The position numbers and the translations under genes are program-made. From contig JARLIE010000218.1 in the NCBI GenBank assembly GCA_031291875.1, positions 4,979 to 68,978 of the forward strand: a stretch of 64,000 bases of DNA. Direction: 5' to 3'. The notes beneath the pieces were generated by a model. It was not told the origin of the DNA, did not search any database, and saw nothing but the letters and a program-made list of their open reading frames with translations. Source of the DNA: Minisyncoccota bacterium (GTDB lineage Bacteria > Patescibacteriota > Minisyncoccia > Phycocordibacterales > UBA2100). Positions 1 to 6,400 of the stretch are shown piece after piece; positions within the stretch are counted from its first letter, which is position 1; every line of letters begins with the position of its first letter.

Positions 1-872
1 GTGATTGCAGCCTGGCGGACCTTGTTGAATTGGCGTGTGTAGAGGTGCGCCATTTCCTTTGCCTTGTCGGTCGCACTTTTCATCGCGACCATGCGTGCTG
101 AGTGCTCGGATGCTTTCGATTCGAGGAGTGCATGAAAGACGGCGATATTCAAAAGGCGTGGCAAGAGCACCGCGAGCACGGAATCTGCATCCGGCTCGAT
201 GGTGTAGAAGGCCGGGGCGTGTACGCTTTCATCTTTTTGCGGCGCGTATTTACCGCGCACCGGACGGATGCCCGCGATCATTTCGGCGATCATGTTTTTC
301 GTGATCGGTATAAGTTGGCGAACACTCGGCTGCTGTTCGAATGTGGAGATGAAATTTTGATACACCACATGGCAGGTACCGATTTCTTTGGCCGAATGCA
401 ATTCGAGAATTTTCTCGGTGACTTTGCGGATGTCGGCCTCTGAAATTCCGTCGGAAAGGTTCTCGTATTTTTCACGCACGTCGAATCCCCTATTGGCGAA
501 GAAGTCGCCGCCTCGTCGTCCGATCGCGAGAATTACGACATTGCTTTTATCCAAACCACGCTGCGAGATCTCGCGTTCGACGCGGCGAATAATGCCGCTG
601 TTGAGCGATCCCGCGAGCCCTTTGTCGCTGGTAATCATCAAGAAACAGGTTTTGCCAGGCCGCTCTTGCAAAAGCGAGTGTCGGGCGATCTCCACGGTTC
701 CCGAGAGACGTTCGAGTATCGAGAGTGCAGCGGCAGCGTACGAGCGACCGCCGAGCGCTCGCTCTTGCGACTTGCGCATCTTCACAGCAGAGACGGCTTC
801 CATCGCGTGCGTGACGGTTCCCGTTTTTTTATACGATTGTATTTTGAGTTTGATGTTCTTCAGCGAGGCCAT
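1..872 (-). CDS. atpG: ATP synthase F1 gamma subunit (3' end cut by window edge)
   Basis: Minus-strand translation from ATG at 872 gives MASLKNIKLKIQSYKKTGTVTHAMEAVSAVKMRK..., the canonical gamma N-terminus. The frame stays open to the window start. It is not in the ORF track because it has no stop inside the window. It lies downstream of atpA in operon order. Confidence 0.85.
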   Translation of the reverse strand, partial: MASLKNIKLKIQSYKKTGTVTHAMEAVSAVKMRKSQERALGGRSYAAAALSILERLSGTVEIARHSLLQERPGKTCFLMITSDKGLAGSLNSGIIRRVEREISQRGLDKSNVVILAIGRRGGDFFANRGFDVREKYENLSDGISEADIRKVTEKILELHSAKEIGTCHVVYQNFISTFEQQPSVRQLIPITKNMIAEMIAGIRPVRGKYAPQKDESVHAPAFYTIEPDADSVLAVLLPRLLNIAVFHALLESKASEHSARMVAMKSATDKAKEMAHLYTRQFNKVRQAAI

Positions 873-873
873 A

Positions 874-1254
874 TTAGTTCAAGGTTCGATCGAGAAAATC
901 TTGTTGGTGCTTTAGCATGTCTTCCATTTCTTGGAGGTTCTCCACATATTCGTCGCGCAGTGATTCCTTTTCTACAAGCTCCTCTTCGAGAAACTTTCTT
1001 TCCGCACCTTCGAGAGATGACAAACGTTCGGTCAAGTGTTCCATTTGTGCGTTCAAGTGTGCAATGCGCTCTTGGTTCAATCTAATCTTTTCGGGCATGA
1101 CCCGCAGGCCGTTGCGCGCGTATTCTATCTTTTCTTCCGTAGAGAGTGTCTTGAAGTGCTCAGTAATTTGTTCGCGGGCTTCCTCAAGTTCGGAGTCATC
1201 GTCAATCTCGACTTCTTCCTTGCGCTCCCGTTTCTTTGGAGGCCGCTCAAACAT
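874..1254 (-). CDS. hypothetical highly charged coiled-coil protein embedded in the atp operon
   Basis: 126-aa ORF. Its ATG (1254) lies 2 nt after the atpA TAA stop, and its own stop abuts the atpG ATG (872). K/E/R/D-rich with heptad-like pattern. No recognisable family. Confidence 0.55.
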   Translation of the reverse strand: MFERPPKKRERKEEVEIDDDSELEEAREQITEHFKTLSTEEKIEYARNGLRVMPEKIRLNQERIAHLNAQMEHLTERLSSLEGAERKFLEEELVEKESLRDEYVENLQEMEDMLKHQQDFLDRTLN

Positions 1255-1256
1255 AG

Positions 1257-2825
1257 TTATTTTGTCGCGAACAATTCCGGGTGCGCGAGACGGAATTCTT
1301 CGGTTGCCTTCGCGATTTCTTTCTTGGAATCGTCCGAGAGTTGGCCCGACTTCTTAATCTCGGCGAACACATTCTTGTGCTGCGCGTCAACGTACTCGAC
1401 GAAAAGCGTCGCCGCCTCTCGTACACGCGCGACCGGAGTGTCGTTGAATATCCTGAGTGATGCGGCGTAGAGCATCGCGACCTGGCGCTCCATCGGAATC
1501 GGCGCGCCATTGCGCTGCTTGAGGAGTTCAATCATGCGCTGACCGGAGGCGAGCTGGTCAGCCGTCGTTTTGTCGAGATCCTGCGCGAACTGAGTGAATG
1601 CTTCGAGATCGCGGAATTGCGCGAGTTCAAGCTTGAGACCGCCGGCGACCGCCTTCACTGCCTTGGTTTGTGCGGAAGAACCGACGCGGGACACAGAGAT
1701 ACCGACATCAATCGCCGGACGAACTCCTTTGTTGAAGAGGTCGGTGACGAGGAAGATTTGGCCGTCGGTGATCGAAATGACGTTGGTCGGGATGTATGCG
1801 GAAACGTCACCTTCTTGGGTTTCGATGATCGGGAGCGCGGTGATAGAACCGCCGCCCTTCTCTTCGCTCATGCGGCACGCGCGCTCAAGCAAACGAGAGT
1901 GGAGATAAAAGATATCGCCCGGATATGCTTCGCGACCCGGCGGGCGGCGAAGAAGGAGCGAGAGTTCGCGGTACGCTACCGCCTGTTTCGAGAGGTCATC
2001 GTAAATAATGAGGACGTCCTTGCCTTTGTCCATGAAGTACTCACCCATCGCAACACCCGCAAACGGGGCAAGATATTGCAACGCCGCAGGCGCAGAGGCC
2101 GGCGCGTCGACGATGATCGTGTACTCCATCGCGCCCGCTTCACGCAGCTGCTGAGCGATACGAGCGGTCTTCGATTCCTTCTGACCGATAGCAACATAGA
2201 TACAAATCGGGCGCTTGTCTTCCGGTTCATTCAGCTGGTTGATGATGGTGTCGATCGCAATCGTTGTTTTGCCTGTCGCGCGGTCGCCAATGATGAGCTC
2301 ACGCTGACCGCGGCCAATCGGGATCATCGCGTCGATCGCGGTGATGCCGGTTGCAAGCGGGACAGTAACGGATTTACGGTCGATAACTCCAGCTGCCTGT
2401 CGCTCGACGGGAACCATCGTCATGTTCTTGAATGGACCTTTGGCATCCTGCGGCTCACCGAGCGCATTCACAACACGGCCGAGCAATTCTTCGCCAGCTG
2501 GTACGCTGAGTACGTGACCCGTCGATTTGACCGTCATTCCTTCTGAAACACGTGCGGTATCGCCGAGAATAGACGCTCGTACGCCGTCTTCTTCGAGGTT
2601 CAAAACGAGGCCGTAGAGTTCAGTCTGCGCCTCCATCGCCTCCGCGAGCTTCTTGCTCTTTGTTTCTTCAAATATCAAAACTTCGCTCATCACGACACTC
2701 GTGAGGCCGTCGATCGCGACGACACCGTCGCCGACTTGCACCACACGGCCTACATGAGCACTCTCATGCGTCGGTTTAAATTGTTCGATCTCCTTTATGA
2801 TCTTTTCGACGGTTGAAGAATTCAT
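1257..2825 (-). CDS. atpA: ATP synthase F1 alpha subunit
   Basis: 522 aa. Walker A GDRATGKT, signature of F1 alpha, typical N-terminal beta-barrel. Operon context. Confidence 0.97.
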
Positions 2826-2827
2826 AG

Positions 2828-3214
2828 CTAGCGTACGGCGCGATTATACATATCCAATAATGCTTGTTTATAGCTTGCATCCACGAGCTTACCCTTACCC
2901 TCGAAGCGCCATCCTCCGATCAATTCAGGGTCGACGCGTGTTTCGACATCTTTCGCTTCTGCGCCGAGTTCCTTGAGGAGCGGTTCGATGTCTCGCTTTG
3001 CGCCGTGCGAATCTTTTTCGCTCGCGATCGTAAGCGTGATCATGTTGTTGCGATGCTCACGTTGCGCCAAGCGCCCGAACGCACTCGCGATGCGAGGCAT
3101 CAACAGCTCGCGTCCATGCGCCTTGAGCGATTCGTGCAGCGATTGCACCGCCTTGTGAGGCTCCATGCCCCTTTCTACCGATTGCCATAGTGCCTGCGCG
3201 TATTCTTTTTCCAT
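2828..3214 (-). CDS. atpH: ATP synthase delta (OSCP) subunit, unusually short
   Basis: 128 aa ending [21 protein letters not shown], a delta C-terminal motif. Sits between atpF and atpA. About 50 aa shorter than typical delta. Confidence 0.75.
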
Positions 3215-3215
3215 A

Positions 3216-3665
3216 TTACGCTTTTTGACCTCGCAAAATCTTCTCCGCAGCGAGCATTGCCGCCTTCACGATCTCGCGCTCGCTCTCTGCAACCACCCGA
3301 CGCTTCTCTTCTTCCGCGCGGACTTGCGCATCTTTGAGAATGGCGCCAGCTTTCGCTTCGGCTGCGTGTACTGTTTCGGCACCGACTTCGCTTGCGCGAG
3401 TGCGCGCGGTGGCGACGAGGCCTTCGGCTTGTCGCGCAGCGTCAGCTACCATTTGGTCTCCTTGCGTTTTTGCATCTTCAAGATGCTGTTGCGCGAGCTG
3501 CGCGGTGCGCACGCTCTCGGCGATCTTCGCGCGACGTTCGTCGATGACGCGAAGAATGGGGCGATACAGGAAGTACGAGAGTGCGATGAGCAGTACGGCG
3601 AAATTCACCCCTTGTATAAGAAGGAGTTTCCAATCAAGACCGAATGCTGCAAAAAACTGTCCCAT
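3216..3665 (-). CDS. atpF: ATP synthase Fo subunit b
   Basis: 149 aa. Single N-terminal TM helix followed by a long charged Ala/Glu/Arg-rich helix. Operon position. Confidence 0.85.
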   Translation of the reverse strand: MGQFFAAFGLDWKLLLIQGVNFAVLLIALSYFLYRPILRVIDERRAKIAESVRTAQLAQQHLEDAKTQGDQMVADAARQAEGLVATARTRASEVGAETVHAAEAKAGAILKDAQVRAEEEKRRVVAESEREIVKAAMLAAEKILRGQKA

Positions 3666-3690: not shown

Positions 3691-3921
<231 letters not shown>

Positions 3922-4015: not shown

Positions 4016-4768
4016 TTAGTGCGCTTCTTCGCCGTGCGGTTCCATGATCGCAAGTTTGACGAAAAAGAGCGTGAGGAGCGCAAAAACGGCCGCCTGCACG
4101 ATTCCCACGAAGAGCTCGAAGCTCATGAGCGGTACTGGCAAGATGTACGGCACGAAATACCCCGCGACCGCGAGCAAAACTTCCCCGGCAAAAACGTTAC
4201 CGAAAAGACGGAAAGAGAACGAAACAAAGCGTGAAAGTTCGCTGATGAGTTCGATGAGGCCGACGATGAAATTGAGGGGCGAGCTGAAATTGATGAACTT
4301 ACCGCCGTACCTAAAGAGGCCTACGGCCACAATACCGGCGATCTCAATCGAAAAGACAGAAATAATGGCGAGCGCGAGCGTTGTATTGAGGTCGCTGTTG
4401 ACGCTGCGTAAGAGCGGGACCCACTCGGCACCCTGTTTGATGATGATCGATCCCACGCCCGGCGTGAACTCGAGCAAATTGGAGGTTGCGATAAAAAGGA
4501 AAATCGTCATGAGGAGCGGAAACATGCGACGGGCCCAGGTGCGATCTTCGAGCGTCTCCGTGATGAAGTCGTATACGTACTCAACGAGCCATTCGAGGAA
4601 TGTCTGGAAGCGGCTCGGCACCATCGAAATGCGCCTTCCTACAAAAAAAGCGGTCAGAATAAGGACGGTCATCACAATCCAACTCGTAATGAGCGTATTG
4701 GTAACCGGAATCCCAAAAAGGGATCCGACCCGTTCGGCTGCGAGAGAAATATGAATACCTGACTGCAT
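4016..4768 (-). CDS. atpB: ATP synthase Fo subunit a
   Basis: Polytopic membrane protein with the essential Arg motif FSFRLFGN. Likely start is MQSGIHISLAAE (ATG 4768). The ORF track extends to 4846. Confidence 0.85.
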   Translation of the reverse strand: MQSGIHISLAAERVGSLFGIPVTNTLITSWIVMTVLILTAFFVGRRISMVPSRFQTFLEWLVEYVYDFITETLEDRTWARRMFPLLMTIFLFIATSNLLEFTPGVGSIIIKQGAEWVPLLRSVNSDLNTTLALAIISVFSIEIAGIVAVGLFRYGGKFINFSSPLNFIVGLIELISELSRFVSFSFRLFGNVFAGEVLLAVAGYFVPYILPVPLMSFELFVGIVQAAVFALLTLFFVKLAIMEPHGEEAH

Positions 4769-4871
4769 ATTTTTCGAAATGGTAGCACAAAGAAGCGGCG
4801 GCCCCAAGGCCGCCGCACACTCCCCGTTGATGTGAATGGTGCCCATTCACAGACGCACTAGCGTAGTCGAA

Positions 4872-5477
4872 TTAGACGTTGGATTTCTGGGGCGGAAGCA
4901 ATACCTCGTTGATGAGATACACGACGCCGTTCGAGCCCTTGTATTCGGCGATGATGATCGAGGAGTTGACCATCGGGATGTTGTTGATGTCCGTGAAATT
5001 CAGCGGATCACCCGACCAAGCCTGCACAACGCCGGAGAATTGGGCACCCGGCTGGATCGCTTTGCCTGCAACGATCGAGTACTGGACGAGGCGCCTAAGT
5101 TGCGCAGCTGTCATCTTCGAGAGCGTGCCTTTCGGCAAGCTTGAGAAAGCGCTGTCGGTCGGTACGAAAATCGTGTACTGGCCGGTCGCGCTTATCGAGC
5201 TGCCGACGCCGGTCGAGCTTAGCAACGACTCATACTCCGATGCGCTCGGCAAAAGTGTGAGGATCGACTTAACCGTATCACTGCTCTTATCAGTCACCGT
5301 CGGTCCTTGAGACGCTTGCGATGTCGTTGTTGCAGCCGTCGAAGTTGCGAGTGACGTATTCGTCGTCGCTACGTTCACCTGCTGATTGGCGGCGATCCAC
5401 CACCAGCCGAGCGCCGCAATCACGACGATCGCAACGATGCCGATCCAGAATCCCTTATTAGCATTTACATTGTTCAT
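4872..5477 (-). CDS. fasciclin (FAS1) domain protein, membrane anchored
   Basis: N-terminal TM helix, Thr/Ser-rich linker, FAS1 core motifs (TIFVPTDSAF, VVYLINEVLLP). Confidence 0.7.
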   Translation of the reverse strand: MNNVNANKGFWIGIVAIVVIAALGWWWIAANQQVNVATTNTSLATSTAATTTSQASQGPTVTDKSSDTVKSILTLLPSASEYESLLSSTGVGSSISATGQYTIFVPTDSAFSSLPKGTLSKMTAAQLRRLVQYSIVAGKAIQPGAQFSGVVQAWSGDPLNFTDINNIPMVNSSIIIAEYKGSNGVVYLINEVLLPPQKSNV

Positions 5478-5542: not shown

Positions 5543-6400
5543 TTACCTTTCTTTCATGAACTCCGCTACCACTTTCGCAACGCGTCCCTCCCCTCCCTTG
5601 AAACCGTGACCGACCCCGGCAACAGTGAGCACGGTGTCGCTCGGTTTCAAATGCTTCTCAAACCAGGCTGTGGCCTCACTCGCCGGTCGGTCGGCAAACT
5701 CGTCTTCCTGCGCCCAGAGCACTAAGATCGGCAGTTTCACCTTCTGTAGCGCACGCGGTTTCTTGTTGGGATCGATATACGTGAAAATTTCTTCCGACGA
5801 ATCGGGCGTATAGAGCGAGAGAAATCTTTGGGCGTCGTTTAATTCTTCCGGCCACAGAGAAGCCGGAATGAACTCGTTCGGTTTACCGCTCTTTACAAGC
5901 TTTCGCGCGTAAGATGCGATTCGAGACAACTTTGCGGCGCCATGACGCTTCAGGGCTCCTGCATAATCACTAACGGGAGCGAGTAGCACGATGCCTTTGA
6001 CGCCTGCTCCCTTCTTTGAAGCCCAGTAAACTGCCTTTTGACAACCGGTCGAGTGGCCGGCGAGAAAAATGCGCTTCACACCTGTCTTTCGAACGAAATC
6101 GATTGCTCCTTGAATATCATCGACACAATCGGTAAAGCGCTCGTGCGCGGATCCCGCTTCATAGGAGATTCCCCTGGTAGATTTAAGCTTGCTCACTGAG
6201 TCGTGCCCGCGATTATTGAAAACTACAACTGCAGTATTTTTGTTGACCAAAGACTGCACGACCGAGTGCATCGAAAACATCGAGGAGGTAAGACCATGTA
6301 TCCAAATGAGCACCTGCTTTGGCTTTTTGGGACCGAACCAAAGTCCGTTCAGTAGAAAATTCTTCGGCGTCGTGATTTGCACGACGAATGCCGGTGTCAT
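5543..6400 (-). CDS. alpha/beta-fold hydrolase
   Basis: 285 aa. Nucleophile elbow GHSTG (GxSxG). HG oxyanion region near N-terminus, C-terminal His. Confidence 0.7.
   Translation of the reverse strand: MTPAFVVQITTPKNFLLNGLWFGPKKPKQVLIWIHGLTSSMFSMHSVVQSLVNKNTAVVVFNNRGHDSVSKLKSTRGISYEAGSAHERFTDCVDDIQGAIDFVRKTGVKRIFLAGHSTGCQKAVYWASKKGAGVKGIVLLAPVSDYAGALKRHGAAKLSRIASYARKLVKSGKPNEFIPASLWPEELNDAQRFLSLYTPDSSEEIFTYIDPNKKPRALQKVKLPILVLWAQEDEFADRPASEATAWFEKHLKPSDTVLTVAGVGHGFKGGEGRVAKVVAEFMKER

Follow-up and report, generated by a model that had tools for sequence, protein, structure and literature searches.

What does an additional small gene do between the genes for the alpha and gamma subunits of an ATP synthase? 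This question is raised by a stretch of 64,000 nucleotides (nt) from a Minisyncoccota bacterium (contig JARLIE010000218.1 of assembly GCA_031291875.1, positions 4,979 to 68,978), hereafter the window, whose atp operon carries on the minus strand, at 874..1254, an open reading frame (ORF) of 126 codons plus a TAA stop that we call ORF126. An original prediction, made from the letters alone, had described it as a real, co-translated gene packed tightly between atpA and atpG, whose charged, heptad-like product might be an accessory, regulatory or peripheral-stalk component of the F1Fo complex. Our analysis leads us to regard ORF126 as being, on balance, an optional passenger gene of the atp operon. 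F1 would be the single most likely target of its product, as a minority bet. ORF126 rides inside the atp operon of a Kaiserbacteria-like bacterium (Patescibacteria, also called the candidate phyla radiation or CPR), and ribosomes would pass from atpA through ORF126 to atpG, as the spacing and the lack of signals of its own suggest. In relatives, the slots at the atp junctions are empty or hold one or other of several alternatives: NUDIX, YfbR-like HD, Ham1 or PemK proteins, small membrane proteins or small acidic helical ORFs.

Evidence for a protein-coding gene in the atp operon

The coordinates of the original prediction proved right, on the minus strand. The TAA stop of atpA (1259-1257) is separated from the ATG of ORF126 (1254-1252) by a 2-nt spacer (1256-1255; whole junction 1255..1259, minus strand), and the TAA stop of ORF126 (876-874) is separated by a single nucleotide (873) from the ATG of atpG (872-870; whole junction 870..876, minus strand). 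No promoter-like or terminator-like site was found on the minus strand between 870 and 1260, and ORF126 matches no Rfam family. Since ORF126 lacks promoter and terminator signals of its own and is spaced by only 2 nt and 1 nt from its neighbors, it is probably co-transcribed with the operon. The packing appears tight enough for translational coupling and, from spacing only, the boundary between atpA and ORF126 can be read as a junction of the termination-reinitiation type.

The coding call rests on ORF prediction, on frame-specific ratios of the proportions of nonsynonymous and synonymous differences (pN/pS) and on the existence of family members. The closest relative, L085, was found by scanning metagenome contigs with atpA (its own atpA is 89% identical) and carries at the same junction an ungapped 126-codon orthologue that is 56% identical to ORF126. 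Between these two sequences, 56% of third codon positions differ and 20% of second positions. In the annotated frame pN is 0.26 and pS is 0.77, giving a pN/pS of 0.34, while the other five frames have values of 0.5-1.8 and all five contain stop codons. A dN/dS ratio proper is not computable because synonymous sites are saturated in this comparison. ORF126 is 56% and 43% identical to its counterparts in L085 and L020, respectively, the corresponding values being 55% and 51% for delta, 60% and 56% for c and 68% and 57% for b. In these two relatives, ORF126 is therefore about as conserved as delta and less conserved than b, c, gamma and alpha. On this comparative evidence, ORF126 is a real protein-coding gene under purifying selection, as had been predicted.

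The product has 126 amino acids (aa), of which 28% are D or E and 17% are K or R; 44% are charged, close to the 45% announced, and the net charge is -14. The GC content of ORF126 is 0.47 versus 0.54-0.57 in the flanking atp genes, i.e. 7-10 points lower, and 60% of its sense strand is purine. This low GC content is probably attributable to the Glu/Lys-rich composition, a foreign origin being possible. ORF126 has no paralogue in the window.

Two variable slots in the atp operons of the clade

With atpA as the query, one genome of each GTDB species was scanned, and the best 80 loci per scan were analyzed. Their labels are Kaiserbacteria, Paceibacterota or Parcubacteria, apart from mislabelled "Saccharibacteria" titles; several of the related contigs are short, and the neighbor-joining tree built on atpA is poorly resolved. 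Among the 77 species loci that have both genes, the gap between atpA and atpG is at most 10 nt in 25, 11-149 nt in 33, 150-299 nt in 4 and at least 300 nt in 15. That is, 58 of the 77 related species have no ORF-sized insert (gap below 150 nt) at this junction.

Where the junction is occupied, the occupants are diverse. Besides the ORF126 family (L020), they include other small acidic helical ORFs of 84-135 aa (L032, L036, L041, L048, L053, L056, L058, L063 and L064), a NUDIX hydrolase (L003, L017 and L022), a YfbR-like HD protein of about 260 aa (L002 and L019) and a PemK toxin (L017), these last three identified with Pfam, as well as a 321-aa protein without a Pfam match (L055:6575-7540). 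Furthermore, two lineages carry a junction occupant of 132-133 aa (L097:5574-5972 and L133:5576-5977) with a nucleotidyltransferase-like 'GSG...D.D' N-terminus and no Pfam match.

The closest relatives of the window differ from one another at this slot: L085 has the ORF126 orthologue, L086, L087 and L003 have NUDIX and L002 has YfbR-like HD. A NUDIX or HD hydrolase thus fills the slot in three of the four nearest relatives. In L003, the NUDIX gene starts 3 nt after atpA and ends 1 nt before atpG. Since this gene is packed like ORF126, the tight, coupling-type spacing is a property of the slot and no evidence for a subunit. The original prediction had read the packing as a sign of a role in the ATP synthase, an argument that is lost when NUDIX and HD hydrolases sit just as tightly in the same place.

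The next junction varies as well. Between atpG and atpD, extra genes account for at least 300 nt in 43 of 62 species loci, and 300-1800 nt separate the gamma and beta genes (for instance L004:7575-8513, L016:7691-9079, L018:7508-9322 and L026:7577-9044). The two junctions together hold 45 NUDIX ORFs, 32 Ham1/RdgB, 7 members of the 23S-rRNA-IVP family, 3 PemK and 4 PaaX-like, in addition to a number of small membrane proteins and numerous acidic helical ORFs that are unrelated. The genes typically follow one another as atpG, small helical ORF, Ham1, NUDIX and atpD. The ATP synthase and enzymes that sanitize nucleoside triphosphates appear to be co-expressed in this clade. Across the loci compared, the atpA|atpG and atpG|atpD junctions behave as variable slots, the former being empty in most species.

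A small acidic helical ORF stands directly before or after atpG in 22 of 62 loci. Such an ORF is absent on both sides in the other 40, and some operons are fully compact. Comparisons of the ORF126 family with these ORFs (L032, L058, L093, L036/L041, L048, L053, L064 and others) by BLAST, hmmsearch and hhalign gave only non-significant scores, no better than those of the reversed control. Three of the ORFs have both terminal motifs in common with the family (L032 MSEEFRPKKP...KRHLN; L058 MLEGFRH..KK...IKHKADFQELTRQHFN; L093 ...KKHLN), and the L058 protein has the same predicted architecture as ORF126 in a model whose alignment included family sequences. L032, L058 and L093, likewise encoded between atpA and atpG, are therefore probable distant relatives of the ORF126 family, to judge from these motifs, and the remaining helical ORFs are probably analogues. 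The C-terminal H-[LF]-N motif was also considered as a DNA-level signal for atpG initiation and was rejected: it is absent before atpG in loci without the ORF, and in L093 the ORF that carries the motif precedes another ORF.

This distribution bears directly on the proposal of a peripheral-stalk or other subunit. Because 58 of 77 junctions have no ORF-sized insert and a small helical ORF beside atpG is missing from 40 of 62 loci, ORF126 is no required component of the stalk or core. Judging by its occurrence, it is neither a stoichiometric nor a required subunit of the ATP synthase and does not compensate for the short delta described below, so that part of the original prediction is not supported. 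In most relatives, the ATP synthase does without a protein of this kind.

If ORF126 is a passenger only, Kaiserbacteria-like genomes would use the junctions of a most conserved and highly expressed operon as changing gene slots, with coupling-type spacing left intact and with a cargo that includes enzymes cleaning the nucleotide pool, toxins and orphan proteins. This would be a caution against inferring a "new subunit" from tight operon packing in streamlined genomes. ORF126 adds to the known phenomenon of non-subunit genes in atp operons; what is new is the orphan family and its unusual position in the operon.

The operons show three further peculiarities. Empty atpA|atpG spacers that are not minimal (50-100 nt; L011:6561-6646, L005:6558-6644, L040:6558-6642 and L031:1842-1922) contain a long imperfect hairpin with a UAG-rich 5' arm and a CUA-rich 3' arm, the folding-energy z-scores being -3.0 to -4.3 in three of the four tested. 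Such a hairpin could serve in processing or stabilizing the mRNA and thereby set the alpha:gamma ratio. Moreover, PemK and other inserts have copies of the end of the adjoining atp gene on their flanks (L102:5984-6484, L017:3688-4210, L050:7600-8155 and L020:2730-3413). For example, PemK is fused to, or preceded by, an additional atpG start ('MASLKNI...'), L050 has an additional atpG C-terminus and L020 an additional atpB 3' end. These arrangements suggest that insertion duplicates the end of the target gene. Finally, within L064:7890-9309 a chimeric ORF made of an atpD N-terminus and an atpG C-terminus lies between two identical membrane ORFs of 95 aa, an arrangement that is either a local duplication/rearrangement or an assembly artefact.

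An orphan family found at a single operon junction

A word-indexed search of 5.8 billion protein clusters returned only ORF126 itself, annotated as a hypothetical protein of a "Candidatus Pacebacteria" metagenome-assembled genome. The sequencing run SRR23300986 contains this locus in identical form. An exhaustive phmmer search of 1.84 billion representatives gave three further proteins (P0002-P0004; E-values 1e-12 to 4e-8). Two profile searches, in which family members have E-values of 5e-47 to 6e-32, added no member beyond the known ORF126 group. All searches together yield ORF126 itself, P0002-P0005 and the L085 ORF. The family has six clear members, among them the L020 and L085 ORFs, with 29-56% identity. 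All six (window, L020, L082-L084 and L085) are encoded after the 3' end of atpA and ahead of atpG, in the same orientation; their spacers mostly range from 1 to about 6 nt and are larger on the atpA side in two members. All six come from Kaiserbacteria-like genomes. No relative was found in viral contigs or phage genomes. The sequences recovered thus define a new orphan family, confined to one operon junction of one CPR clade. A literature search on peculiarities of CPR or Kaiserbacteria ATP synthases, or on genes between atpA and atpG, returned nothing relevant.

Conserved motifs occur in three places. The N-terminus starts with M-[FI]-E-[RK]-x-P-K-[KR], followed in ORF126 by an acidic run. 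The most conserved stretch, Q-E-R-x-A-H-L-N-A-Q-[IM]-E-x-L in alignment A1, covers codons 61-74 (1033..1074, minus strand). E62, R63, A65, H66, L67, A69 and E72 are invariant in that alignment; in members found later, A65 differs in the L085 orthologue, and both R63 and A65 differ in the three distant sequences. ORF126 ends in K-H-x-x-D-F...[LMF]-N, of which the family shares ...D-F...[LMF]-N with the terminal Asn.

Predicted structure and comparison with known proteins

The heptad-like character that had been noticed in the sequence is borne out by structure prediction and by a test of hydrophobic periodicity, which give a helical hairpin with heptads. The AlphaFold2 model of ORF126, built on a five-sequence alignment, has a mean pLDDT (predicted local distance difference test, a confidence score) of 83.7. 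The N-terminal tail, codons 1-18 (1201..1254, minus strand), is predicted to be disordered, with pLDDT below 50 at residues 1-3 and 8-17, and is followed by a short first helix of moderate confidence (codons 19-35; 1150..1200, minus strand). Codons 39-78 (1021..1140, minus strand) form the first long helix, which has a heptad pattern, and codons 83-125 (880..1008, minus strand) form the second, antiparallel to it; the two make a hairpin with a four-residue turn and pLDDT of 90-98. The 3.5-residue hydrophobic periodicity is significant in both long helices, with 1.6% and 1.9% of shuffles reaching the observed power, and the a/d positions hold hydrophobic residues in 9 of 12 and 7 of 12 cases. 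No transmembrane or hydrophobic segment is present in the sequence. We infer a soluble, acidic product that has a disordered tail and a hairpin of about 40 residues per arm. E62, R63, H66 and E72 form a conserved charged face on the modelled hairpin. This face, together with the disordered tail, suggests that ORF126 would act by binding another protein.

A Foldseek search against PDB retrieved only generic hairpins: the N-terminal domains of CT398/HP0958, the ING4 dimerisation domain, FadA and a fragment of IpaB. Their query-normalised TM-scores are 0.57-0.61, and the matches are non-significant (best E-value 0.29, 9-23% identity), such that they reflect shape only and carry no functional information.

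The original prediction had recognised no similarity to epsilon, delta, AtpI or other known subunits, and this holds with Pfam, NCBIfam, PDB and hhalign, also for b, c and gamma. In Pfam and NCBIfam, ORF126 matches no family (best E-values 0.006 and 0.0017, far below the curated cut-offs), and at E-values up to 10 the family profile retrieves neither a subunit nor an inhibitor of an ATP synthase from among the PDB chains. There is no OSCP match for delta (hhalign probability 0.1%) and no PF00430 match for b or b' (0.2%, and no hydrophobic segment). The epsilon C-terminal domain gives no Pfam or NCBIfam match and an hhalign probability of 0.4% against the clade epsilon alignment. An origin by duplication of a neighboring subunit gene was also considered: in hhalign comparisons with the alignments of b, delta, gamma, epsilon and c from the clade, no probability exceeds 0.4%, a level equal to that of the reversed-sequence control, and ORF126 is therefore not a detectable duplicate of such a gene.

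Accessory ORFs that are co-transcribed with the structural genes and dispensable for catalysis are familiar from other atp operons, in the form of atpI/uncI, atpZ and the atpR/atpQ of N-ATPases, and ORF126 probably resembles them in this respect. These are small membrane proteins encoded at the 5' end of the operon, whereas ORF126 lies between alpha and gamma, is 44% charged, has no hydrophobic stretch and matches none of their models.

Short delta and epsilon subunits

The delta gene of the window, atpH (2828..3214, minus strand), encodes 128 aa that match only positions 52-168 of the 172-position OSCP profile; according to Pfam and NCBIfam, about 50 N-terminal residues of the profile are missing. 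The unusually short delta that had been pointed out is thus confirmed, and its suggested link with ORF126 fails. In related loci where it is measurable, delta mostly has 117-136 aa (three are longer and two shorter), with or without ORF126, so its shortness is a trait of the clade that is independent of ORF126. Likewise, epsilon has 76-90 aa in every related locus where it is measurable, with or without ORF126 (for example atpC at L020:9834-10085). At about 82 aa, it matches the beta-sandwich domain only and has no C-terminal helices. In the related loci, no correlation was found between ORF126 and the length of delta, epsilon or gamma. These lengths suggest a minimal F1Fo in which epsilon does not exert its usual autoinhibition and the contact between alpha and delta is altered.

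Alternative explanations

Several points weigh against ORF126 being nothing else than a passenger. First, all known family members are in the atp operon only, adjoining atpG, a pattern that would also be expected of a dedicated ATP-synthase partner. Second, among the small acidic helical ORFs that 22 of 62 species have beside atpG, several share the motifs M-x-E-x-F-x-K-K and [KR]-x-H-[LF]-N, which hints at a recurrent function adjacent to gamma. Third, an epsilon without regulatory C-terminal helices leaves a functional gap that could be filled by a trans-acting helical protein. Finally, the survey covers the best 80 loci per scan, and co-transcription and co-translation are judged from sequence.

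These points lead to the best of the alternatives, a facultative soluble regulator of F1 similar to IF1 or zeta, which we consider possible but doubtful. The disordered tail or the short first helix would insert at the alpha/beta/gamma interface, the hairpin serving as a scaffold or dimerisation module, and ORF126 would supply, in the lineages that keep the gene, the hydrolysis control missing from an epsilon that lacks its C-terminal domain. The reduction of epsilon to a beta-sandwich of about 76-90 aa in every measurable related operon, the exclusive association of the family with atpG and its conservation, similar to that of delta in the two pairwise comparisons, are in favor of such a role.

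The comparison with IF1 (Pfam IATP) cuts both ways. Both proteins are small, soluble, highly charged and almost all helical. However, IF1 is a basic protein whereas ORF126 is strongly acidic (net charge -14), and ORF126 is predicted to fold as an intramolecular hairpin whereas IF1 is a single long dimerising helix. Moreover, IF1 is not encoded in the atp operon, and ORF126 has no sequence similarity to it (no Pfam match at E-values up to 1 and no PDB IF1 chain at E-values up to 10). In IF1, the N-terminal region is disordered when free and the heptad C-terminal part forms an antiparallel coiled coil (PMC9317440); the AlphaFold2 model and the heptads of ORF126 follow this general layout of a disordered N-terminus and coiled-coil-like helices.

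Zeta provides a precedent for a separately encoded inhibitor. This non-essential helical protein of about 100 aa, which inhibits the alphaproteobacterial F1Fo (e.g. in Paracoccus denitrificans) through a disordered N-terminus, replaced an epsilon whose C-terminal domain was truncated or non-inhibitory (PMC9317440), and the epsilon of the Kaiserbacteria-like clade also lacks this domain. Zeta is treated as a subunit of the alphaproteobacterial class (PMC9317440), whereas ORF126-like genes occur in a minority of their own clade. It is also a globular four-helix bundle, unlike the long two-helix hairpin and short helix predicted for ORF126, and no Pfam (DUF1476) or PDB sequence match links the two.

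Epsilon's own C-terminal domain is a helix-turn-helix hairpin that regulates F1, i.e. exactly what the clade's own epsilon misses. Its helices, each about 20 residues long, belong to the same chain as the beta-sandwich, whereas the arms of ORF126 have about 40 residues and belong to a separate protein. For a regulator, the absence of similarity to IF1, zeta and this domain in Pfam and among PDB chains is unfavorable, and so are the absence of ORF126 from most relatives with the same truncated epsilon and the presence of unrelated enzymes and toxins in the same slot. In addition, CPR bacteria are believed to use their F1Fo mainly as a pump driven by ATP, and an inhibitor of hydrolysis is therefore less obviously needed. 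A more ambitious version, which we hold very slightly more doubtful still, would make ORF126 a fast-evolving, facultative trans-acting brake or modulator of F1, representing a third independent invention of the IF1/zeta type and the first in Patescibacteria, with the helical ORFs flanking atpG in sister species as divergent versions. A true action on F1 would show how bacteria with a minimal delta and epsilon regulate their ATP synthase, by an IF1/zeta-like protein of independent origin.

It is unlikely that ORF126 is cargo of a mobile element or a protein related to toxin-antitoxin or defence systems (for example antitoxin-like or anti-defence) that landed in the operon. In relatives, PemK toxins and an MNT/HEPN-like pair do occupy these junctions of the operon, some of the cassettes having duplicated atpG ends, and the GC content of ORF126 is below that of its neighbors. 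Furthermore, among family members the identity of the ORF shows no correlation with that of atpG (Spearman rho -0.17 over 15 pairs of short sequences, 129 residues, with a narrow identity range). However, the neighbors of ORF126 are atpA and atpG and not a partner toxin gene, it has no flanking duplications or repeats, and its low GC content is explained by its Glu/Lys-rich composition. PADLOC and PHROGs gave only weak matches for ORF126 and its family, of the coiled-coil noise kind (E-values of 2e-4 or worse), and viral contigs and phage genomes contain no relative.

An even less probable explanation is an extra peripheral-stalk or delta-complementing subunit, replacing the missing N-terminal part of delta or acting as a second b-like arm. 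In its favor, delta is truncated, and ORF126 is long and helical like stalk proteins. Yet the short delta is clade-wide without any association with ORF126, most species have no ORF-sized insert at the junction, hhalign scores against the clade's subunit alignments do not exceed the reversed control, and the protein has no transmembrane segment and is predicted to be a hairpin rather than an extended parallel coiled coil.

It is barely credible that ORF126 is not a gene and that its frame is open by chance in a widened spacer or only mirrors an antisense ORF: there are long ORFs on the opposite strand (917-1357(+), 146 aa; 1036-1470(+), 144 aa) and one antisense frame has a pN/pS of 0.5, but the products of these ORFs are Ser/Arg-rich and of low complexity, whereas the sense frame has the lowest pN/pS, is the sole frame free of stops in both species and is kept open across six lineages with its motifs conserved.

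Other genes of the atp operon in the window

The operon order on the minus strand is atpB, atpE, atpF, atpH, atpA, ORF126 and atpG, and Pfam confirms the b, delta, alpha and gamma subunits. The gamma gene atpG (3..872, minus strand; PF00231, 4.5e-73) is cut at the end of the window after its first 290 codons. Upstream of ORF126, atpA (1257..2825, minus strand) encodes an alpha subunit of 522 aa (PF00006, 1.7e-82; PF00306; PF02874), and beyond atpH, atpF (3216..3665, minus strand) encodes a b subunit of 149 aa, recognised by Pfam and NCBIfam. The c subunit of 75 aa is encoded by atpE (3691..3918, minus strand), taken from the ORF list and used as a tblastn query that is conserved in related loci, and the a subunit of 276 aa by atpB (4016..4846, minus strand), identified from the ORF list and related loci. 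The window has no atpI-like gene directly upstream of atpB; on the minus strand upstream of atpB lie genes, at 4872-5477 and 5543-6400, for a membrane-anchored protein with a fasciclin domain (PF02469, 3.6e-20) and an alpha/beta hydrolase.

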